From assembly GCA_964470365.1 (NCBI GenBank), contig CAYYCO010000007.1, forward strand, positions 207 through 64,206: 64,000 nt of DNA, in the 5' to 3' direction. The notes below the pieces were generated by a model. The model saw only the letters and a list, made by a program, of their open reading frames with translations. It was not told where the DNA came from and did no database searches. The translations under genes were made by a program, and so were the position numbers. This document shows, in pieces, positions 38,184 to 54,728 of the stretch (position 1 is its first letter; each line of letters begins with the position of its first letter). Origin of the DNA: an uncultured Anaeromyxobacteraceae bacterium (GTDB lineage Bacteria > Myxococcota_A > UBA9042 > DTJE01).

Positions 38184-38203
38184 AAACCGTTTGGGGGGGG
38201 GCC

Positions 38204-38797
38204 GTGCACCGCATTTACGGAAACGACGAACCGACCACCCGGCGCACGAACGCGCGCGGTGGCCGCGGTTACGCCCTGCTCGTGGTTCTCCTGCTGATGC
38301 TCGCCCTGACCGTAATCGGCGTCATCGCCGTCCGGACCACTGCGAACGACATCACTTTTTCGGGCGCCCAGCGCGTGACTGCCATGGCGCGCAACGTGGC
38401 ATCGTCCGGTGCACAGGCAACCATCGTTTTCGGCGCGATGAATCCCACGGGTTTCATCGACTATGTGAACGTCAACAGCGGCAATATCGCGATGAACGAT
38501 TTTCTTGCCGGTTTCTTCGACACCGCGGTCGACGGCTCCGGTTCCTTCGGCCGCGAGGTCGCAAATGTCAACAATGCCGCATGGACCAGCCGCCTGATCA
38601 ACCCTCAGACATCGGCTCGCGCGCCCGGCTATCAGCTTGGCGAACACTGTTTCATCAGGTACACGGCATTCACCGACGGCCTGTACGGCAACCAGCCGAA
38701 TATCGCCGATCCGCAGGACGTCACGCGCAATGCCGAACGCAACGCGCTCGCGCGTGACCTGACCACACTGTACGTCGGACCGGTCCCGTGTCCATGA
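38204..38797 (+). CDS. pilX: Type IV pilus minor pilin PilX-like
   Basis: N-terminus RGYALLVVLLLMLALTVIGV. 197 aa. Confidence 0.7.
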   Translation: MHRIYGNDEPTTRRTNARGGRGYALLVVLLLMLALTVIGVIAVRTTANDITFSGAQRVTAMARNVASSGAQATIVFGAMNPTGFIDYVNVNSGNIAMNDFLAGFFDTAVDGSGSFGREVANVNNAAWTSRLINPQTSARAPGYQLGEHCFIRYTAFTDGLYGNQPNIADPQDVTRNAERNALARDLTTLYVGPVPCP

Positions 38798-38805
38798 GGT
38801 GTGAA

Positions 38806-41800
38806 ATGAAACGTAATGCAAAATCATTCCTGGTGGTGACGGTCGTTCTGGCCTGTTCCGCAACATGCCTGGATGCGGCCGCGAAAAAGCCGATTGACTC
38901 GGGAACGCCGTCCGCCGTGCCGATTGTCCACCTGATGATCGATACGTCCGGATCGATGCAGTACAACGTCGTACCTTCCCCGGCTGAAAGGGACGACTTC
39001 CAGCCGGAACTGGTGCCGACATGTTCCAAGACACCGGGGATGTCCGGGAAAAGCCGTTACATCGATCTGGTGGAAAGGCTCGTCGGCTCTCTTGGCGACG
39101 ACTATTACTGCGAATCGCAGGACCGCAATTCAAAAAAATCGCCGTACTGCCCGGCCAAGGACTGCTACAACGTCGTCCCGCACATACAGGCTTACGGAAC
39201 CCGCGCGTCCGACGGCATCATCGACGCCGCCGGCGCCAGCGTCAAATTCAGCATCATGACCATGGACACCGACCCCGACCACAACTCGGGTAACAGCGGC
39301 GACTACAGCTACGGCAAGGAAAAATTCGGCAGCGGCTCCGACAAAATCAATTACGGCGCGCAGAATGGCCACGCAAAAAACGGCGCGCTGGTGGTTCCCC
39401 CCTCTTCCGACTCACCTGCCGACATCCTGGCTAACAACGCCGCGGTCAAGGCATCCCTGCTGGCGGCCCGGCCTGGTGGCGGAACCCCGATCGGCGCCAT
39501 GATGTACGACGCCGCGTACATGTACAACAACGAACCGGTCTTCCAGAACGACACTTATTCGTCATGCCGAAAAAATTCGATCGTCCTGCTGACCGACGGC
39601 CTCAGCAACCTCGCGGACGGGGAGCGCGGCTACCCGAACGCGGTTGACGGCGCGCAGACGATGCGCGAACTCGGATTCGACGTCTGGGTCGTCCAGTACG
39701 CCACCGGCGCCGGCGTCACCAGCAAGGCCTACGACATCGCCACATATTACGGCATGCTGCCCGACGACCATCTGCTGACTGCCAGCGATGCGGCCAGCCT
39801 TAACACCGCGCTGACAACGGTGGTGGAGGCCGCCGCGGAATCGTCCCAGACCAGGACGGCCACGGTCGTGACGAATGCGACGGGCAACACGACCGACGTC
39901 CAGTACCAGTTCAACGCGTCGTTCATGTCCGTCAGCGGGCCCGCCGGCGCCAGTGACGCGACGATTCTTACGGGCGTCCTGGAACGTTCGGTTTACCAGT
40001 GCGGTATCAACCAGGAAGACACCGGCAACGCCGGTCTGGCGGAAATCCAGAACATCAGCGCAAAGCTGACCGCGACGTCCGACGGTTCCCGGAACATCTA
40101 CACGATGGTCGACGGCGATAAGGAAGAATTCGTTTCCAGCAACAACGCGATAACGAATTCAATGCTCAACGCCCCGAATCCCTTCCTGGAAATGGTTCCG
40201 GACTTCGGCCTCGACCCGGCGACGGACTGGTGCAGGGCAGGATCGATTTCCAGCCTGCTGCCGTCACAGAGGCTGGCGAAGTGGCGTGAAAACCTGTTCG
40301 ATTACATCCGCGCCAGCGATGATTCATGCCGCGCCGGATACAAAATGGGTGCCATAATCCATTCGACCCCGGCGCTGCAGGACGATCTTGCCAACGCGTC
40401 GCTGACGATTCCATCGTTCGCGGATTACAAGGCCACAATCAAGAACAGGCCTCACATGCTGTACGTGGCGACTCACGACGGCCTGATCCATGCAATCAGA
40501 TTCGATCGCCCGGACGGCCGCACGCAGCCGGATACCTGGGGGCAGGAACTCTGGGCGTACATTCCGGGCCACCTGCTCGGAAAACTGCGCACGGTTCCGG
40601 AAGACGGACAGATCATCCTCGACGGCGCGGCGACCATTTCGGACACGGTCGTTTCGCGAACCGCCAACAGCCGGCGCGACGAGGACGCCAGTGACTGGAT
40701 GTCGGTGCTGATCGTTGGCGACAGGGCCGAGGGTGCCGGTTACACGGCGCTCGACGTGACCGACCCGACCGACGGCAACTGGTCAATACTGTGGGAACTC
40801 TCCGCCCAGTATGGACGCTGCATGGGGGGGGCCAACAATTGCAACCCCGGCGGCGCCCTGGGCGGATATCGCAACGACTTTTCGCGGCTTGGCCAGGCTT
40901 TCGGGCAGCCCGCAACCGGAAACGTAATGATTTGTCCGTCGGCGTCGGGCACATGCAACCAGACCCAGCTTGAAGAGGTCGCGGTTGCCGTCATCCCGGG
41001 CGGAAGTTCCGATGGCATCCTTACGCCGGGCGTCGGCAGGACGGCCTTCGTGGTCAGGCTTGATACCGGTGAAAAACTGGCAGAATTCGCATCCGGCAAT
41101 CTGGACGGGGATTCATCCAACGCAAAATCCGACTGCAATGGCTCCACCTCGATAGTCGCCGCGGACATCATCGGCGACGTGTCCTGCATATCAACGATGC
41201 CGGGAACCTTCCTGACGAAGTGCTATGTCGGCGACCGTGCCGGCCGGCTGTGGAAAATCGAAATCGGTTCTCCATCCAGGTCGGCATGGACCATGACCAT
41301 GTTCTACGACCCGTACGACTTCGACGGCGGCACGGCCGATCCGCTGGATTCGATGCGCGCACCGGTTTACGGTGCCCCGGCGATTTCGATGACCCGCGGG
41401 ACCAACGAACCGGTGATCATTTTCGGCGGCGGTGAAATCGACCAGTTGACCGGAACGACGCAGAAGGCTTTCGTGGCGTCCATCACCGATACGATCGCCG
41501 CATCCGCGCCTGCCGACTGCTCGCCCTGGGATGACAACACATGTTTCAGGTCGGTGGGCGGCGGCATGTTCAACGGCCCGAAGGTCAACTGGAAATTCTT
41601 CCTGGGATACGATTCCAGTCTGAGCGCCATTTCCGGCGAACCGTCCGGCATGCGCCTGATGGGGGCGCCAACGATCTACGGCGGCGTCGCGTACTTCACG
41701 ACATATATCCCCGACGAGGACAACGCCTGCGCGGTCGGCGTCGGCCGCGTTTACGGCGTGGACTATGTGCAGTCTGACGGGTCCTGCGACAATCCGCAGG

Positions 41801-42147
41801 CACGCCTCCCGTCCGAGGATGATCCCTACGAATTCGAGTCATGGCAGGTGATTGGCTGCGCGGAAACGCCGGCCGTGCCGTACGGCGTCACCGTTGTCGA
41901 CCGGCCGGCCTGCATCGGCGGCGAAAGCATCTTCGACGCGGGCGCCGGGTCGGCCAGCGGAAGCGCGTTCGGTTCGGCCGCCGGCGGCGGCCCGCAAATA
42001 GTCGTTCAAACAGGCCTGGATACTGGTGTTGACGGGGAACAGCCGGCCGGCGGTTCGACTGATCGTACCGTCAACCAGCTGGTCCGCAACATCATGCGGG
42101 CCGTCGAATCGATCGTCGTCGGCACGTGGGGCTCGGTTTTTGACTGA
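38806..42147 (+). CDS. pilY1: PilY1-like pilus tip protein with an N-terminal vWA domain
   Basis: Start at MKRNAKSFLVVTVVLACSA. vWA MIDAS motif LMIDTSGSM with downstream LLTDGLSN. The long C-terminal region is PilY1-type beta-propeller-like. About 1113 aa. Confidence 0.8.
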   Translation: MKRNAKSFLVVTVVLACSATCLDAAAKKPIDSGTPSAVPIVHLMIDTSGSMQYNVVPSPAERDDFQPELVPTCSKTPGMSGKSRYIDLVERLVGSLGDDYYCESQDRNSKKSPYCPAKDCYNVVPHIQAYGTRASDGIIDAAGASVKFSIMTMDTDPDHNSGNSGDYSYGKEKFGSGSDKINYGAQNGHAKNGALVVPPSSDSPADILANNAAVKASLLAARPGGGTPIGAMMYDAAYMYNNEPVFQNDTYSSCRKNSIVLLTDGLSNLADGERGYPNAVDGAQTMRELGFDVWVVQYATGAGVTSKAYDIATYYGMLPDDHLLTASDAASLNTALTTVVEAAAESSQTRTATVVTNATGNTTDVQYQFNASFMSVSGPAGASDATILTGVLERSVYQCGINQEDTGNAGLAEIQNISAKLTATSDGSRNIYTMVDGDKEEFVSSNNAITNSMLNAPNPFLEMVPDFGLDPATDWCRAGSISSLLPSQRLAKWRENLFDYIRASDDSCRAGYKMGAIIHSTPALQDDLANASLTIPSFADYKATIKNRPHMLYVATHDGLIHAIRFDRPDGRTQPDTWGQELWAYIPGHLLGKLRTVPEDGQIILDGAATISDTVVSRTANSRRDEDASDWMSVLIVGDRAEGAGYTALDVTDPTDGNWSILWELSAQYGRCMGGANNCNPGGALGGYRNDFSRLGQAFGQPATGNVMICPSASGTCNQTQLEEVAVAVIPGGSSDGILTPGVGRTAFVVRLDTGEKLAEFASGNLDGDSSNAKSDCNGSTSIVAADIIGDVSCISTMPGTFLTKCYVGDRAGRLWKIEIGSPSRSAWTMTMFYDPYDFDGGTADPLDSMRAPVYGAPAISMTRGTNEPVIIFGGGEIDQLTGTTQKAFVASITDTIAASAPADCSPWDDNTCFRSVGGGMFNGPKVNWKFFLGYDSSLSAISGEPSGMRLMGAPTIYGGVAYFTTYIPDEDNACAVGVGRVYGVDYVQSDGSCDNPQARLPSEDDPYEFESWQVIGCAETPAVPYGVTVVDRPACIGGESIFDAGAGSASGSAFGSAAGGGPQIVVQTGLDTGVDGEQPAGGSTDRTVNQLVRNIMRAVESIVVGTWGSVFD

Positions 42148-47742: not shown

Positions 47743-50734
47743 TCAGAAAAGGCTCTGCTGAACCGGACGCCGCCCGGTTCGACCACCCGCCGAAACCTGC
47801 CGTGCAGGACAGCCGGGCAGGAAGCGTGACAGTTCCGGGCGCCCCTGACGGCCGCGTGCCGACCAGCTCAGGAAAAGACGGCTGCGGGCACGGGTGACGG
47901 CGACGAAAAGCAGCCGGCGCTCTTCATCTTCGTCGAAATCGGGCCCCGATACCAGCGGCACCATGCCGTCATTCAATCCAACGACAAAAACATTGTCGAA
48001 CTCAAGGCCCTTGGACGCGTGAATCGTCAACAGATGGACGCGCTCCGGGCTCAACCCGAAGGCGTCGACTTCGTTCAGCAGCGCAAGTCGCGCCACCGCG
48101 GGACCACAGGCCATGCCTTCCACGAGGGCAAGGAGGGCCCTGACCTGGCGCGGCGGCGGGCAGAAGCCGGAAACCGCGACGGCGCCGCGGGCCACATCGT
48201 CGAACGGCCGGGCGGGATCTGCAGCAGCGGCGGCGGACATCACGGTGCGCACCCACTCGTTTTCCCACAGTGGCGCGTCCGACGCCTGCTCGAACGGAAT
48301 GCCGGCGTCGGCCAGGGCGGCGGCGACCGGTTGCAGGGCCTGGTGGGTGCGCCCGAGAACCGCAAAATCGCCCAGGCCGGCAAAACCGGCATCGCTGGCG
48401 GAATCCAGCATGTCCAGACCCCCGACAAGTCGCCCGATCGTGTCGGCAACCCACGCGGCCTCGTCGCCGGCATACCCCGCGCGGCAGAGGACGACCGGAT
48501 CGTGGTCGTGCCCGGCGCGTCCCGACCGCAGCGCGCGCCCCGAACCGCCGCACGATCCCGAAACGAACGTCGCCATGTCGACGACCGGCGGCGTCAGTCT
48601 GTGCGTGAGTCCGATGACATGGCGCGAGGCATCGGGATGGTCTGCGGCGAAACGCTCGAAAACGGCCGGGACCGCGCCACGGAATCCATAAATCGACTGA
48701 TCGGGATCGCCAACGCAGAAGACCGATGTATCCGGTCCGGCCAGGAGACCCAGCATCGTGTACTGATCGTCCGAAATGTCCTGGAATTCGTCGACAAGAA
48801 TGTGATCCCAGCCGCCAAAGACCGATCTGTCCGCCGCCAGTGCCGAAACAAATGTCGGGACCAGCATGTCAAGGGTGACGGCGCCGGGGAACTGTCCCGC
48901 CGCAGCTGCGGCGTCATCAACGACGACAGGAGGCTGCGCCCCCCCCGGCAATCGCGGCCGCGGTCAGCTCGCGAAGGGCCAGCGCGTGGAAGGTTGACAC
49001 CGCCGGACACCCGGATTCGCCCAGTTCCTGACGCAGCCTGCCCAGCGCCTCGCCGGCGGCACGGTTCGTGAACGTCACGACGAGAATCCGCGATGGGTCG
49101 CATCCGCCCGCGACGAGCCCGGCGGCACGGGCAACCATCGTCCGTGTCTTGCCCGTTCCAGGTCCGGCCACGACCAGACAGTACCTGTCGTGGCATGACG
49201 CAGCCATGTCCTGCTCCGGGGTCAGCGCCGACACCGCCGGCACCCCCGGGGCAAACAGGTCGTCAGCCGCCAGTTCCGCACCGATCTCCGGTGCGACGGC
49301 CGACGCCGTACCGGCCACGACGCGCCCGGACGCGGGTCTTTCCCCGGGCCCGAACATCAGGCCCTGCCCCTGGAACATCGCCGCCTCGCCGGGCAGGAAC
49401 AGGCGGATCCGTCCATATTCGCCGTCATAACCCGCTTCCTTGAATACCCGCCCCGCCCTCATGCGCCGTATCGCCTCGGCCAGGGCATATTCGCCGCCGT
49501 CCTCCAGCACGCCCGTGTCCATGTCGGCAAGTATGTCCAGTTCCCCGCCGAACCTGGCGATCAGCGATTCCCAGCGGCTGACGACCCTGCGCGACGACTC
49601 GCCGCATCCCTCGATTTCGGCGACGATTTCGGGCAGCGGAATCAGGCTGGCCTGTCCCGGGAATCCGGGCGGAACGTCCGATGCGGCACGATCGGCCAGT
49701 TGTTCCACGCGCCCCAGCACGCCGGGCGTCAGACGGCCGCCGCACACCGGGCACCGTCCGCCAAGCCGTTCGGTCTCGGCAGGTTCGCACCGGAAATCGC
49801 ATTTACGGTGACCGTCAACGTGGTACTTGCCCTCTTCCGGGAAAAATTCGACCGTGCCCAGCAACCGTCCGGGACCTGGCTCGCCCCGGAGTGCCGAGAC
49901 CAGTCCCCGCCAGGACATCTCTCCGGCCAGTATCGTGGCCTCACGTCCCAGTTTCGACGGAGAATGGGCGTCCGACGACGAGGTCAGCGCCAGCCGATCC
50001 AGCGCTGACCAGCGACGGTTCATGGCCACGTCCGAAGACAGGCCCGTTTCGATCGCGAATATTTCGCCGGTAAGGTCCTCGAAGCACTCTTCCAGGGAAT
50101 CGAACCCCGACATCGCCCCGAACACCGAAAAGTGAGGCGTCCAGACGTGAGCCGGAATCATGAACGCCCCCGGGGCCAGGTCAAGCGCCAGGCGCAGGAT
50201 CGCAAGCGGTTCCAGCCCGAGTATCGGCCGTCCGTCCGACGTGATGTTGCCCAGACGCCCCAGCGCCGTCGAAAACCGTCGCGCCGATTCCAGATCGGGC
50301 ATGAAAACCAGGCTATGCACCTTCCTGGTCCGCCCGTTCTTCTTGAAAATGGACGAAATCTCGCCGCAGATGACGAACCTGACGTCGCGTTTCGCCGCGG
50401 CCGGAACCTGCGCGCCTGCCGGCGCGACCACCGATGACCTGGCCGAAAGCAGACCGTCGCCGTCCTCCACCAGGTCGCGTTCGATTTCGGCCATCCAGGC
50501 CGGATGGGTGAAGTCGCCCGTTCCGACGAGCGAGATCCCCTTCAGGCCGGCGAACCTGGAAATCGACGTGAAGTTCAGTTCACTGCTGGTCGCACGTGAA
50601 AAACGTGAATGTATGTGGAGGTCGGCGAAATACCGGCCGGGTTCCAGTTCCATCAGGGCACCCCGGGATTCGGCAACCGGCCGGGCGGGTTCACGAACGG
50701 GCGCGCCTGACGCCGAAAGCGGCCGCGCAGCCAA
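47743..50734 (-). pseudogene. PHP-domain phosphoesterase fused to a compact UvrD-like SF1 helicase, split into two frames by a frameshift in a G8 (plus-strand C8) homopolymer
   Basis: Upstream ORF 48917-50734 (probable start MELEPG at 50653) carries PHP motifs ADLHIHSRFS and SSDAHSP, a Zn ribbon CPVCGG, then helicase motifs I (VVAGPGTGKTRT) and Ia (VVTFTNRAAGEA). It stops 30 nt after the tract. Downstream ORF 47743-48951 starts at a TTG right on the tract. It carries motifs II (ILVDEFQD), III (VGDPDQSIYGFRGA) and V/VI (LTIHASKGLEFDNVFVVGL, VAVTRARSRLFLS). Removing one G from the tract at 48939-48946 fuses them in frame. Confidence 0.7.
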
Positions 50735-52271: not shown

Positions 52272-54728
52272 ATGAACAGGTATCTGCGCGCGATACTGTG
52301 CCTTGTTGCGGCCTTCACTGCCCTGTGCCTGCCGGCAGCGGCCCTGGCAAAGGCCGCCGATTACACGTTCAGCATCGTTGTCGAGGCGCACTGCGTCAGC
52401 AAGGCCACGGTGTGCGGCGCCAATTCCGAGGCCGACTTCGAGTCCGGCGCCCGGCAGGCCATATTCGACCTGAACGAATACTGGCGTTCAACCGGCATCT
52501 CCTTCCAGCTCGGCAAGGTCGAATTCAATTACGCGGACGACTACGCCGAAATCAGGGACGACTCGCTGGACGCCGGTGAGGAAGCCGATCTCGCCCTGTT
52601 GAACACGCTGCGCTTGAAGGCGAAAAACGACCCGTCGAACGTTTACTGGTTCGTCATCGAAAAAATCGGGTTCTGCTTTTCGGGAATCCCGGGGGCGCAC
52701 CTCGGCCGCACCCCGAACGTGAGGATGCCGAACGAGTATTACGGCCTGTTCTGCAGCGGCGTGGACGGCAACACGATGGCGCATGAACTTGGCCACCATT
52801 TCTGCCTGAACCACCCGTTCACGGAGGCGGAACCGACATCGGCCGCTGCCGGCGTCAACCACGACGGCGACGGACTGACCGACACGCCGGACGACCCCAG
52901 CATCGCCGAGGGAGCGTGGAACGACGCATCCCAGGCCGCCAGGGACAACGCCGACGTGGTTTACACCCGCCCGACCCAGTGCTGGCGCGACCCTGAAACG
53001 TGCGGCGCGATCAACGACAGGCGCGACTGGTGCGGGTACACGTACCTGAACACCGACCCCGGCAGCTACCGCCCGGGTTACTGCGATCCGTCGTGCAGGC
53101 GGAAAATGGACGGAGTCATCACGTCAACGGCTTACAGCCCCGCCATGGAACTGATCATGTCGTACTACAAGTGGGAATGTTCGGGGCCGTTCGTTTACAA
53201 CTTCCAGACATACGACGCGTTCAGCCCCCAGCAGATCGACATGGTGCGGTCGTGCGTCATCGACGGCGACGAACGCGGCCAGCTTGTCGACAGGTGCGGC
53301 GGTGTCGATTCTGACTGGGACGGCCTCTGCGACCCGGACGACCCGTGTCCCGGCGACCCGGCCGCGACTTCGTCCGCCGACAAGGACGGCGACGGCGTGC
53401 CGGACAAATGCGATCCCTGCCCGGACATCGTAAATTCCGGCCTCGACACCGACGGCGACGGGGTGGACGACGCCTGCGACGACAACGACGACAACGACGC
53501 CTGCGTGGATTCCGAGGATCTGCGGCCGAAAAACAACACCATGCAGATCGGAACAATCCTGACGCCCGGGTGCAGCAAGACGACCCATGCCGTGACCGCA
53601 TCCGAAAGCGCCGACACCGACGGTGACGGTATCAGGGACTGCGCCGAGGCCGACAACGACAACGACGGAATCGACGACGGCATGGACCCCTGCCCCAACC
53701 TTGCCGATTCGGAGATGTGCGACATTCCCGGCGATGGCTGCGCCCTTGAAATACCCTGGGCCACATGCCTGGGTGGCGGATGCGCCATGGACATCTGGGC
53801 CCGGCTTGAATCAATCATGCACCCCGACGACCCGCGCCTGGAAATCCCGGTAAGGTTCCAGAATGAAAGTATGTTCCTGATGCCTTCGACCGGACGCACC
53901 GCCGGGGAAATCAGGGGCGGGCTGACCGGGATCAATCTCGGCCTCGCGGAAGGCAACGAAACCGTCGGCATGTCGCTCGTCGACTCCACCGGCGCGAAGG
54001 TCGCGGACGTCGGAACGTACAGGCTGGGGGACGTGACGACGATCGGCGGCAACCTCGGCAACGCGGTGGAGGTCAGGTTCGACGGGTACAGGTCGCTCGC
54101 GGCGGCGCCAAGGGAATCGAGGGCGGCGGCAGGGACGATGAAACTGAAGGTCGGCCTTACCTGGGGCGTGGGAATTCCGGCGGACGAGGTGCTGGCGGAC
54201 GCCGACGGCGACGGCGTTCCCGACGTGGCCGACAACTGCGTGGAAACTGCCAACACGGCCCAGGTCGACAGCGATGGCGATCGTGTCGGAAATGCATGCG
54301 ACCCGGATTCCGACGACGACGGGCTCGTCACGCAGGCCGATCTTGATCGAATCGCAGCGTGCGTGGGGGCCGACGTCGCGTCCGTTCCACGCATGACCGA
54401 GCCGGGCCAGCAGGTCATGGATCCCGGGATGGCAGAACAGTCTTTCATGGCCCTGCGCTGCCGTTTTGCCGACCTCGACGGCAACGGGATCGTCGGGGAA
54501 GCCGATTCGGCCGCCGCCGCGGAATACCTGGGACGCACGCCCGGTCCGTCCGGCATGGTTGACACGTCATGGGCGGTCGTGGAAGAAGAAGACGACGGCG
54601 GCTGCACCGCCGGAATGGCAGGCACCGCAGGCAGCGCGGCGCCCTATGTGCTGATCTGCTGTGTTTTCGGGGGTCTGCTGATGGCGATTGGCGCGCGACG
54701 CCGGTTCAGGGCCGCGCAACGGGCCTGA
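52272..54728 (+). CDS. Secreted metzincin-type zinc metalloprotease (M43/pappalysin-like) with thrombospondin type-3 Ca-binding repeats and MYXO-CTERM-type tail
   Basis: Signal peptide. Extended zinc motif HELGHHFCLNH at 52782-52814. Two blocks of DxDxDGxxDxxD repeats (DKDGDGVPDKCDPCP, DTDGDGVDDACDDND, DTDGDGIRDCAEADNDNDGIDDGMDPCP, DADGDGVPDVADNC, DSDGDRVGNACDPDSDDDG). C-terminal tail DDGGCTAGMAGTAGSAAPYVLICCVFGGLLMAIGARRRF. Confidence 0.75.
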   Translation: MNRYLRAILCLVAAFTALCLPAAALAKAADYTFSIVVEAHCVSKATVCGANSEADFESGARQAIFDLNEYWRSTGISFQLGKVEFNYADDYAEIRDDSLDAGEEADLALLNTLRLKAKNDPSNVYWFVIEKIGFCFSGIPGAHLGRTPNVRMPNEYYGLFCSGVDGNTMAHELGHHFCLNHPFTEAEPTSAAAGVNHDGDGLTDTPDDPSIAEGAWNDASQAARDNADVVYTRPTQCWRDPETCGAINDRRDWCGYTYLNTDPGSYRPGYCDPSCRRKMDGVITSTAYSPAMELIMSYYKWECSGPFVYNFQTYDAFSPQQIDMVRSCVIDGDERGQLVDRCGGVDSDWDGLCDPDDPCPGDPAATSSADKDGDGVPDKCDPCPDIVNSGLDTDGDGVDDACDDNDDNDACVDSEDLRPKNNTMQIGTILTPGCSKTTHAVTASESADTDGDGIRDCAEADNDNDGIDDGMDPCPNLADSEMCDIPGDGCALEIPWATCLGGGCAMDIWARLESIMHPDDPRLEIPVRFQNESMFLMPSTGRTAGEIRGGLTGINLGLAEGNETVGMSLVDSTGAKVADVGTYRLGDVTTIGGNLGNAVEVRFDGYRSLAAAPRESRAAAGTMKLKVGLTWGVGIPADEVLADADGDGVPDVADNCVETANTAQVDSDGDRVGNACDPDSDDDGLVTQADLDRIAACVGADVASVPRMTEPGQQVMDPGMAEQSFMALRCRFADLDGNGIVGEADSAAAAEYLGRTPGPSGMVDTSWAVVEEEDDGGCTAGMAGTAGSAAPYVLICCVFGGLLMAIGARRRFRAAQRA

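Follow-up and report, generated by a model that had tools for sequence, protein, structure and literature searches.

A gene split at a G8 run in an uncultured Anaeromyxobacteraceae bacterium belongs to a widespread family of endonuclease Q-helicase fusions

Introduction

Do two overlapping minus-strand reading frames in the window (the whole stretch of DNA analysed here, 64,000 nucleotides) constitute one gene broken at a homopolymer and, if so, what does this gene encode and what is the nature of the break? The first-pass annotation of this DNA, made from the sequence without database searches, had read them as one gene split at an 8-nucleotide run and encoding a PHP phosphoesterase, a zinc ribbon, and a compact UvrD-like helicase. 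Here we relate the locus to endonuclease Q (EndoQ), a lesion-specific endonuclease that nicks DNA 5' of dU, dI, and AP sites (PMC4357722). A three-family classification of EndoQ by domain organisation (Shiraishi 2017) is cited in Miyazono 2018. Published accounts describe EndoQ as rare among bacteria, with occurrences recorded for Bacillus and Desulfovibrio (PMC4357722, PMC8438529).

Results

The two frames, 48917..50734 (605 aa from a TTG start) and 47743..48951 (402 aa), overlap at a run of eight G residues on the coding strand (C8 on the plus strand) at window positions 48939-48946, which is the sole G/C run of at least 6 nucleotides within the gene. When one G was deleted, a stop-free frame of 996 codons was obtained, reading ...AIAGGAQPPVVVDD..., and the proposal of one continuous gene was thereby confirmed, with a repaired protein of 969 aa as counted from the probable start codon, ATG 50653 (Table 1). 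Translation probably starts at ATG 50653, with the TTG at 50734 extending the frame too far upstream, because the N termini of homologues lie 2 to 8 residues ahead of ADLHIHS and because the Logan gene call comprises 578 aa. This call (P0003) was 100% identical to the upstream frame. The downstream frame is called in Logan as a protein of 374 aa, starting from an ATG at 48867. The G8 run lies where subdomain 1B begins and separates helicase motif Ia from motif II by a change of frame; with one G removed, both flanks aligned gap-free to intact orthologues. As it stands, the gene would yield the EndoQ domain and a dead helicase stub without the clamp motif. Matches to the run pattern in the window (4, versus 6.1 ± 3.3 in dinucleotide shuffles) showed no enrichment of G8, and a G8 run alone is not unusual; the nonrandom feature is that the only frame break of the gene falls exactly inside it.

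Table 1. Features of the EndoQ-helicase locus (window positions; residues are numbered from ATG 50653)
Feature	Position	Strand	Description or basis
Whole EndoQ-helicase gene	47743..50653	-	969 aa plus stop after removal of one G; stop codon 47743-47745
Upstream frame as it stands, 578 aa	48917..50653	-	EndoQ, linker, and helicase motifs Q, I, and Ia; premature stop 48917-48919
Downstream frame, 402 aa from TTG	47743..48951	-	Helicase motifs II to VI and C-terminal clamp-type motif; without Walker A
G8 homopolymer, frame switch point	48939..48946	-	Intact state G7 (GCC GGG GGG GCG, A-G-G-A)
EndoQ PHP catalytic domain, residues 1 to ~270	49844..50653	-	EndoQ alignment, fold, conservation
EndoQ Zn-binding domain, residues ~271-335	49649..49843	-	CPVCGG at 301-306
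EndoQ C-terminal helical domain, residues ~336-430 (Pfam MJ0043_C region)	49364..49648	-	Profile, fold
Low-complexity linker, predicted disordered, residues 435-474	49232..49351	-	pLDDT <50; lowest identity to orthologue
UvrD/PcrA/Rep-like SF1 helicase core, residues 477-957	47782..49225	-	Pfam, AF2 model, motifs
Motif I, AGPGTGKT	49145-49168	-	Helicase core
Motif Ia, TFTNRAA	49055-49075	-	Helicase core
Motif II, DEFQD	48778-48792	-	Helicase core
Motif III	48676-48711	-	Helicase core
Motif V	48001-48021	-	Helicase core
Motif VI, VAVTRAR	47884-47904	-	Helicase core
QQSLF, last five residues	47746..47760	-	Fits bacterial beta-clamp-binding consensus QxxLF; tail pLDDT <50

The N-terminal 430 aa of the repaired protein, which had not been recognised as belonging to a named family, are a full-length EndoQ (TIGR00375-like; Pfam MJ0043_C; PDB 5zb8/7k30). 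Residues 10 to 418 aligned end to end with residues 5 to 382 of PfuEndoQ (E = 2e-44, about 30% identity), and residues 10 to 416 covered positions 2 to 374 of the 374 positions of the TIGR00375 profile (E = 1e-43), with a score (149.7 bits) below the NCBI curated cut-off (326.6). The fused clade is a diverged EndoQ subfamily, for which the substrate range of EndoQ is predicted. The AF2 model (mean pLDDT 89; >90 across most of the EndoQ region) was matched by Foldseek to 5zb8 with a TM score of 0.89 and an rmsd of 2.4 to 3.1 Å over ~425 alignment columns. Generic Pfam PHP did not match at an E of ≤0.01, and the only related match was to PHP_C (E = 0.002, below its cut-off). It is thus homology to EndoQ, together with the fold, that supports the PHP assignment, and on these grounds the PHP N terminus described earlier stands, without a match to the generic profile.

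The PHP metal ligands H13, H15, E98, H113, H169, and D228, plus R142 and H230, were invariant in 103 homologues and are equivalent to H8, H10, E76, H84, H139, and D193, plus R114 and H195, of PfuEndoQ (PMC5961232). The lesion pocket comprises H169, T172, E202, T203, G204, L205, S206, and S226; at 7 of the 9 positions of the deaminated-base pocket (Pfu H139, T142, E167, L168, G169, L170, S171, N191, and D193) the residues were identical, with Pfu L168 replaced by T203, which is invariant across the clade, and Pfu N191 by S226, at a variable position (N/S/H/C). The position of Pfu W144 is occupied by His in the window protein and by Trp in 81 of the 103 homologues. The predicted Zn ligands H282, C285, C301, and C304 (C249, C252, C268, and C271 in Pfu) were likewise invariant in the 103 homologues, whereas the additional C289 of the window protein was present in just 11 of them. 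What had been called a C4 zinc ribbon is indeed a predicted Zn-binding module, but its conserved ligands are His-Cys-Cys-Cys rather than four cysteines.

The C-terminal part matched Pfam UvrD-helicase (147.5 bits; gathering threshold, 23) and UvrD_C (89.4 bits; gathering threshold, 25.6). Q481, GxGKT 499-503, TFTNRAA, DEFQD 621-625, GDPDQSIYGFRG, R685, HxxKGxE 878-884, and VAVTRAR, representing motifs Q, I, Ia, and II to VI, were invariant family-wide. All motifs listed in the first-pass annotation were recovered, namely, HxH (H13/H15), DAHS (D228-S231), CPVCGG, motifs I and Ia before the break, and motifs II, III, V, and VI after it. Foldseek comparison with UvrD/PcrA/Rep gave TM scores of 0.5 to 0.62. 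The gaps between aligned blocks at subdomains 1B and 2B were 49 and 66 aa, versus 113 and 161 aa in Escherichia coli UvrD (~64 and ~95 aa shorter, respectively), and both subdomains are small helical remnants in the AF2 model, in agreement with the compact UvrD-type motor described before. The protein is nevertheless no orthologue of UvrD, PcrA, or Rep: NCBIfam equivalog scores were 129 to 171 bits versus cut-offs of 911 to 1168.

The repaired protein ends in QQSLF, of which Q965 and L968 were invariant in 103/103 homologues, and a clamp-type motif was found within the last 12 aa of 206 of the 252 full-length homologues (0.004 expected). The consensus for binding to the beta clamp is QL[S/D]LF/QxxLF (PMC12309361), and archaeal EndoQ binds PCNA via a PIP motif (PMC8307549). 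By its sequence, QQSLF is a beta-clamp-binding-type motif conserved across the family, and binding to the clamp is predicted.

More than 120 clusters (90% identity) of this family were single ORFs of 925 to 1250 aa, with hosts among Myxococcota, Desulfobacterota, Clostridia, Bacteroidales, Actinomycetota, and Rhodothermus. The best 120 clusters were all fused, with the sole exception of a fragment from the window's own contig. A search with the EndoQ domain gave 929 representatives (50% identity) at an E of ≤1e-30; ~125 of the best 150 matches were 900 to 1250 aa in length. Both parts were in one frame in all fused species loci with DNA reaching into the helicase part (23/23). The fusion is thus not rare and predominates among the closest relatives in the EndoQ family, and the gene is ordinary apart from its break. 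The family is already populated in databases, where its members are labelled only "UvrD-helicase domain-containing protein." Some fused homologues carry the JGI label TIGR00375. At the database level, therefore, the PHP-UvrD architecture proved largely described; in the literature searched, we found no paper describing or characterising an EndoQ-helicase or PHP-UvrD fusion and no assay of any fused-clade member. Near stand-alone EndoQ loci (Rosetta-stone check), no UvrD-like gene was found within 6 kb.

Related genomes carry a single fused ORF, the point that the earlier proposal had asked to have checked: the syntenic orthologues (73%, 67%, and 61% identity) were single ORFs without a G run at the break site. 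The run was missing from 7/7 orthologues and homologues examined, in which the site is a variable segment. Programmed frameshifting or transcriptional slippage as a designed feature was ruled out, as the run was absent from every orthologue. Close relatives showed conserved housekeeping synteny (UbiB, OmpA, BamB-like), and the neighbours in the window encode a DUF6599 protein, a 225-aa protein, and a 478-aa secreted-type protein. Among 22 fused loci, shared neighbours were found only in three close relatives, with none shared across phyla, no operon partner, and no conserved gene that would indicate a pathway; AddB/RecC/RecD-like partner genes were not found near the locus.

Of 183 residues conserved in the family, 182 are retained in the repaired protein; for the part past the break the count is 47 of 48. 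No excess of window-specific changes was observed downstream (Fisher P = 0.45). A decaying gene, one of the explanations offered at first, is not what these residues indicate. Since the orthologues are intact and lack the run, the conserved residues are kept, and changes downstream are not in excess, the break is either very recent or an artefact, and a real slippage or a sequencing indel are still the two leading readings, as had been anticipated. Two contigs, one from NCBI and the other from Logan (SRR10083296), carry G8, yet differ at one synonymous SNP. This agreement tips the balance a little towards a real mutation; identical or related reads may underlie both assemblies, however, so that a systematic homopolymer error retains some probability. 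We consider slippage that truly occurred, and that is carried by the dominant genotype, slightly more likely than a consensus error. In this lineage, a G7 run would have arisen by substitution where 1B begins, after which the addition of one G would have split the frame.

A consensus error, with G7 as the true state and the gene intact and functional, is the lesser of the two possibilities but a serious one. The gene contains just one long homopolymer and is broken precisely there, all orthologues are intact, and the retention of conserved residues without relaxed evolution past the break fits an artefact equally well. The public data searched held no intact or alternative allele either: two scans of JGI metagenomes for G6 to G10 variants revealed no other alleles, and the protein database contained no intact copy at about 100% identity. 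Against an error stands the reading of G8 in two consensus sequences distinguishable by a SNP. In addition, the long and near-identical Logan contig is taken to derive from accurate short reads (the platform is inferred), in which majority-rule errors at G8 are uncommon. Five other suspicious pairs of overlapping or adjacent ORFs in the window were all separate genes, none of them split, and the second G8 run in the window sits in frame in an intact ORF; a G9 run is intergenic.

That the run is an evolved phase-variation tract, toggling a repair enzyme by slipped-strand mispairing and, e.g., modulating the mutation rate, is very unlikely. Within a coding region, eight G residues suffice for slippage, the off state would drop the helicase and the clamp motif while keeping the EndoQ domain, and two more runs of at least 8 nucleotides are located within 11 kb, in a pilus-like cluster. 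However, the run is lacking in all seven homologues examined, at a segment that is variable, the window has no excess of G8 runs, no length variants were present in the databases and metagenomes scanned, and the neighbouring genes are of housekeeping type. The phase-variable switch, put forward in the first-pass annotation as one possibility, is accordingly not adopted.

Discussion

Our data make it probable, with moderate confidence, that the locus is an orthologue of a widespread fusion of EndoQ, a linker of ~40 aa, a compact UvrD/PcrA-like helicase, and a terminal QQSLF, in which the break is very recent, slightly likelier real slippage than error, and not an evolved switch, and in which nick-and-unwind repair would be the function. 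PfuEndoQ remains on its cleaved product (PMC5961232), and removal of the incised strand by a helicase has already been proposed for EndoQ repair (PMC4357722). In the mechanism that we propose, a uracil, a hypoxanthine, or an abasic site would first be flipped out by the EndoQ domain, which would then nick the strand directly on the 5' side of the lesion, so that a 3'-OH remains. Being part of the same chain, the helicase would load at the EndoQ-made nick and, with ATP, strip EndoQ off its tightly held product and peel back the lesion-bearing strand, whereupon a polymerase, a flap nuclease, and ligase would complete the repair. The clamp motif may bring the enzyme to sites of replication and repair. 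The role and polarity of the helicase, as well as clamp binding, are here taken from what is known of the respective protein families. We put forward, tentatively, that the fused clade performs self-contained, clamp-tethered nick-and-unwind excision repair of deaminated and abasic bases, widespread in anaerobic and environmental bacteria, with the helicase turning over a product-bound endonuclease, and that this function was lost very recently in this MAG by slippage in a new G run.

A role of the fusion family mainly in antiphage defence, cutting and unwinding uracil-containing or unusual phage DNA by a Gabija-like logic of nuclease and UvrD, is unlikely. The best PADLOC matches were GajB-type UvrD helicases (E = 4e-48), although they were limited to the generic helicase core. 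UvrD-like motors and nucleases are a recurring pairing in defence systems, which counts for such a role. Bacterial EndoQ may join antiviral defence, according to a review (PMC8307549). In the fused clade, however, no GajA-like or other defence partner adjoins the gene, synteny in close relatives is of housekeeping type with no neighbour common across phyla, and the conservation of a clamp-binding-type tail is suggestive of a function in replication and repair. The RecB/AddA-like end-resecting helicase-nuclease with 3'-5' exonuclease activity that had been suggested, in which a PHP exonuclease replaces PD-(D/E)xK, is highly improbable, since, although a nuclease and an SF1A motor share a single chain in both cases and AddA and RecB models matched weakly via the common helicase core (98 bits versus a cut-off of 708 and 85 versus 696, respectively), the nuclease is a complete EndoQ with a mostly conserved lesion pocket, is N-terminal and joined to the motor by a flexible linker, and has no AddB, RecC, or RecD genes nearby, and the EndoQ enzymes that have been characterised cut on the 5' side of damaged bases and do not degrade ends (PMC4357722).

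Proteins with an EndoQ domain are far from few (929 representatives, versus the published rarity), and most of the closest are fused to a helicase and have a clamp-binding-type end. This suggests a one-polypeptide route of incision and unwinding for the repair of uracil, hypoxanthine, and AP sites in many bacteria. Eisenbergiella tayi, Rhodothermus profundi, Polyangium aurulentum, and Desulfoferula mesophila are cultured hosts suited to testing. For the locus itself the result is mostly clarifying, as the "unnamed" PHP-helicase of the window belongs, as an orthologue with a broken frame, to a large family.

Compared with the characterised EndoQ set (PfuEndoQ PF1551, TkoEndoQ, MacEndoQ, and the Bacillus pumilus and Bacillus subtilis enzymes; PDB 5zb8 and 7k30-7k33), the window protein shares the PHP, Zn-binding, and C-terminal helical domains over ~420 aa, all six metal ligands, the R114 and H195 equivalents, most of the deaminated-base pocket, and a clamp-interaction-type motif at the extreme C terminus of the polypeptide. 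Unlike EndoQ, it adds a C-terminal UvrD-like helicase of ~500 aa and has His in place of Cys as the first Zn ligand, and unlike in archaeal EndoQ, the terminal motif is a bacterial QxxLF and not a PCNA PIP box. With UvrD, PcrA, and Rep it has in common motifs Q, I, Ia, II, III, IV, V, and VI, and the closest solved helicase structures are those of E. coli UvrD, Mycobacterium tuberculosis UvrD1, Deinococcus radiodurans UvrD, Rep, and PcrA. In nucleotide excision and mismatch repair, UvrD works at nicks once an endonuclease has acted. The nick-then-unwind logic proposed for the fusion would be the same, but UvrD is recruited by MutL or UvrAB, whereas the helicase of the window protein is fused to its own incision nuclease. 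As in AddA, RecB, and AdnB, an SF1A motor and a nuclease reside on one polypeptide; in contrast to these, the nuclease is an N-terminal endonuclease of PHP fold, predicted to be lesion specific, instead of a C-terminal PD-(D/E)xK domain, and there are no partner subunits. The UvrD-like core resembles that of Gabija GajB, with strong PADLOC matches, whereas, unlike Gabija, the locus has no GajA OLD-type nuclease partner, lies in no defence island, and encodes a clamp-type motif.

A single break in the EndoQ-helicase gene

The two overlapping ORFs that the first-pass annotation had taken for one gene, with a frame switch at a G8 run, do belong together. They overlap at the coding-strand G8, which is the sole G/C run of at least 6 nt in the gene, and with one G deleted the frame runs without a stop for 996 codons, through ...AIAGGAQPPVVVDD..., close to the continuous protein of about 1,000 aa that had been foreseen. 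The ORF listing probably extends too far upstream, to the TTG at 50734. The start codon is likely the ATG at 50653, since homologues start a few residues before ADLHIHS and the gene call in the Logan contig (a public assembly of SRR10083296 matching the window) has 578 aa; the repaired protein (one G deleted; residue numbers refer to it) then has 969 aa. A G8 run is by itself unremarkable in this window of 63% G+C (4 pattern matches versus 6.1 ± 3.3 in shuffles). What is significant is that the frame is broken once only, inside the run, and that after removal of one G both flanks align gap-free to intact orthologues. As it stands, the first product (578 aa) would retain an intact endonuclease Q (EndoQ) domain, the linker, and, of the helicase motifs, Q, I, and Ia, and the second frame has no Walker A motif. 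The split state would therefore be without helicase activity and the clamp motif; stand-alone EndoQ-like nicking might persist.

Features of the split gene, its repaired product, and its surroundings (PfuEndoQ, Pyrococcus furiosus EndoQ)
Feature	Window position	Strand	Size	PfuEndoQ residues	Repaired-protein residues	Conservation
Upstream ORF	48917..50734	minus	605 aa
Downstream ORF	47743..48951	minus	402 aa
G8 run at break	48939-48946	minus
Metal ligands				H8, H10, E76, H84, H139, D193	H13, H15, E98, H113, H169, D228	invariant, 103 homologues
Other required residues				R114, H195	R142, H230	invariant, 103 homologues
Zn ligands				C249, C252, C268, C271	H282, C285, C301, C304	invariant, 103 homologues
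Segment of first Zn ligand	49790-49810				282-288
Gene with thrombospondin type 3 repeats	52272-54728	plus	818 aa
ORF containing other G8 run	38788-42147		1119 aa
Other G8 run	40824-40831
G9 run	38193-38201

Endonuclease and helicase parts of the repaired protein

[quoted passage not shown] Residues 10 to 416 covered the TIGR00375 model in full (positions 2 to 374 of 374; E = 1e-43) with a score of 149.7 bits, below the NCBI curated cut-off of 326.6, and residues 10 to 418 aligned end to end with PfuEndoQ (PDB 5zb8 and 7k30; E = 2e-44). The precomputed Pfam label of the database copy is PF27218 (MJ0043_C). Functional residues were taken from PfuEndoQ as defined in PMC5961232, and their conservation was counted in 103 homologues (see table). 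In the fused clade the first Zn ligand, Cys249 in PfuEndoQ, is an invariant His (homologue alignment A1). Since all four ligands are invariant, the conserved Zn site is His-Cys3 and not the C4 zinc ribbon first described; an extra C289, present in only 11/103 homologues, gives it a C4 look. Seven of the nine pocket residues of PfuEndoQ are identical here; an invariant Thr stands in place of L168, and the N191 position is variable.

Residues 477 to 931 scored above cut-off with the Pfam models UvrD-helicase (147.5 bits) and UvrD_C (89.4 bits). Of the earlier reading as a PHP-Zn module joined to a compact UvrD-type helicase, the motor stood, and the N-terminal part was identified as EndoQ with its His-Cys3 site. 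The helicase motifs form a complete set that is invariant across the fusion family. The term "compact" was apt: E. coli UvrD has 113 aa (subdomain 1B) and 161 aa (2B) between aligned blocks, versus 49 and 66 aa here. The nearest solved proteins are E. coli UvrD, M. tuberculosis UvrD1, D. radiodurans UvrD, Rep, and PcrA; orthology to UvrD, UvrD1, Rep, or PcrA was ruled out (129 to 171 bits versus cut-offs of 911 to 1168). The repaired protein was modelled with AlphaFold2 from a 104-sequence alignment (mean pLDDT, 89). The linker (residues 435 to 474) and tail (958 to 969) were disordered in the model, which Foldseek matched in the PDB to PfuEndoQ (TM, 0.89; rmsd, 2.4 to 3.1 Å) and UvrD/PcrA/Rep (TM, 0.5 to 0.62).

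The repaired protein ends in QQSLF, a feature missed at first reading. In the homologue alignment Q965 and L968 are invariant, with L, M, or Q at 966 and F or L at 969, and Q-[LMQIV]-x-[LMI]-[FLIWY] occurred in the last 12 residues of 206/252 full-length homologues (0.004 expected per tail). QQSLF fits the bacterial β-clamp-binding consensus, QL[S/D]LF or more broadly QxxLF (PMC12309361), from which we infer clamp binding.

A defence role for the fusion rests on generic matches to GajB-type helicases and one remark in a review (PMC8307549), against which stand the housekeeping synteny of the gene and the clamp motif. RecB/AddA-like end processing, suggested initially, is not supported: the nuclease is of the wrong type and at the wrong position, no partner genes lie nearby, and model scores are far below cut-off. 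The first-pass observation is confirmed and its interpretation partly supported.

Origin of the break

The syntenic orthologues P0001, P0002, and L006 (73%, 67%, and 61% identity) are each a single ORF in a conserved gene order (UbiB, OmpA-like, ~470-aa secreted-type protein, EndoQ-helicase gene, ~210- to 225-aa protein, DUF6599). Their break-site codons are GCG GCC GGG GCC, GCC GCG GGA GAT, and GAA AGG GGG CAA, respectively; the G run was absent in 7/7 homologues compared, and sequence varies in this segment, where 1B starts. Most simply, a substitution first made G7 (changing Ala to Gly), and one more G was then gained. Of 183 columns with at least 95% conservation in 118 homologues, the repaired protein keeps 182 (sole difference, L680I), including 47/48 located 3′ of the break, and a three-taxon test found no downstream excess of window-specific amino acid changes (32 versus 46 upstream and 16 versus 32 downstream; Fisher P = 0.45). 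The break is therefore either very recent or an artefact.

The Logan assembly (8,021 bp) aligned gap-free with the window and likewise had G8, and both ORF fragments are recorded in NCBI and in Logan. A single synonymous CAT/CAC mismatch at 50315, where catalytic His113 is encoded, separates the two, which are therefore non-identical consensus builds or reflect a slightly heterogeneous population. No split gene turned up among the other suspect ORF pairs that were checked in the window, and the other G8 run lies inside an intact ORF, the L004 counterpart of which weakly matched T4P_PilY1. Given G8 in both assemblies, the lack of other split pairs, and the in-frame second G8, we lean toward a true slippage mutation carried by the dominant genotype over a consensus error, which we regard as less likely. 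Decay, also proposed initially, was not seen. That the G run is an evolved phase-variation tract is very improbable; no other run-length alleles were found in the public data searched.

The only other G/C runs of at least 8 nt in the window, the second G8 and a G9 that is intergenic and immediately 5′ of an ORF starting at 38204, lie in a pseudopilin/PilY1-like cluster, and all three long runs, the one at the break included, fall within 11 kb. The 818-aa gene, which also weakly matches M12 metallopeptidases, separates the OmpA-like gene from the 478-aa secreted-type gene. In orthologous loci L002 and L004 these two sit side by side, so the 818-aa gene is apparently a lineage-specific insertion next to the EndoQ-helicase gene.

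Distribution of the fusion

Fused loci were present in GTDB species genomes of Clostridia (e.g., Eisenbergiella tayi DSM 26961), Bacteroidales, and "Deltaproteobacteria," with both parts in one frame in 23/23 fused loci whose DNA reached into the helicase part. Among 5.8 billion clustered proteins, the best 120 matches, except the contig's own 578-aa fragment, were fused proteins of 928 to 1246 aa with MJ0043_C and UvrD domains, from sources including Desulfoferula mesophila, Deferrisoma, Polyangium aurulentum, Amycolatopsis acidicola, Rhodothermus profundi, Planctomycetota, and Gammaproteobacteria. The nearest named orthologues came from Myxococcota MAGs, and NCBI labels fused proteins merely "UvrD-helicase domain-containing protein." The EndoQ domain alone retrieved 929 representatives (50% identity clusters; E ≤ 1e-30), and ~125 of the best 150 were 900 to 1250 aa long. 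Another ~20 of these 150 had intermediate lengths of 520 to 890 aa (e.g., P0123, 687 aa; P0141, 719 aa; P0159, 615 aa; P0184, 550 aa) and could be contig-end truncations or more split or frameshifted fusion copies. Stand-alone EndoQ genes of ~410 aa (loci L027 to L045) came from Blautia, Mediterraneibacter, Aminicenantes, Dehalococcoidia, Aerophobetes, and gammaproteobacterial MAGs, and no UvrD-like gene was found within 6 kb of them.

Bacterial EndoQ is far more widespread than the Bacillus and Desulfovibrio homologues mentioned in the literature. EndoQ is sorted into three families "based on the domain organization," according to PMC5961232, which cites Shiraishi 2017; no description or assay of the EndoQ-helicase fusion was found in the literature searched. 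The architecture census and orthologue check proposed in the first-pass annotation returned single fused ORFs in orthologues and a fusion common in databases. The first-pass annotation had not recognised a named family; the N-terminal part is EndoQ. The locus itself offers little new, being a broken copy from a known enzyme family with an architecture abundant in databases; what stays of interest is the fusion clade, which is uncharacterised, and the clamp-type motif conserved in it.

Proposed mechanism and comparison with known systems

UvrD-type motors translocate 3′ to 5′ and start at nicks in nucleotide excision and mismatch repair. EndoQ would flip the damaged base into its pocket and nick 5′ of it, leaving 3′-OH and 5′-phosphate ends, as reported for EndoQ (PMC4357722). 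PfuEndoQ stays on the cleaved product, with single-turnover behavior (PMC5961232), and the original EndoQ paper proposed that the incised strand is removed "by helicase activity" (PMC4357722). A UvrD-type motor in cis could plausibly load at the self-made nick, free the endonuclease, and peel away the lesion-bearing 5′ end, after which polymerase, flap nuclease, and ligase would finish repair; the clamp-type tail might bring the enzyme to sites of replication or repair. No neighbors conserved across phyla were found around fused genes, which fits a self-contained enzyme. In Rep, deletion of 2B activates the monomer, and by analogy the small 2B subdomain may be relevant to the mechanism. Archaeal EndoQ uses a PIP motif to bind PCNA, which stimulates it (PMC8307549); with a bacterial-type motif here, the clamp link seems to have been kept across domains of life, each with its domain-appropriate motif.
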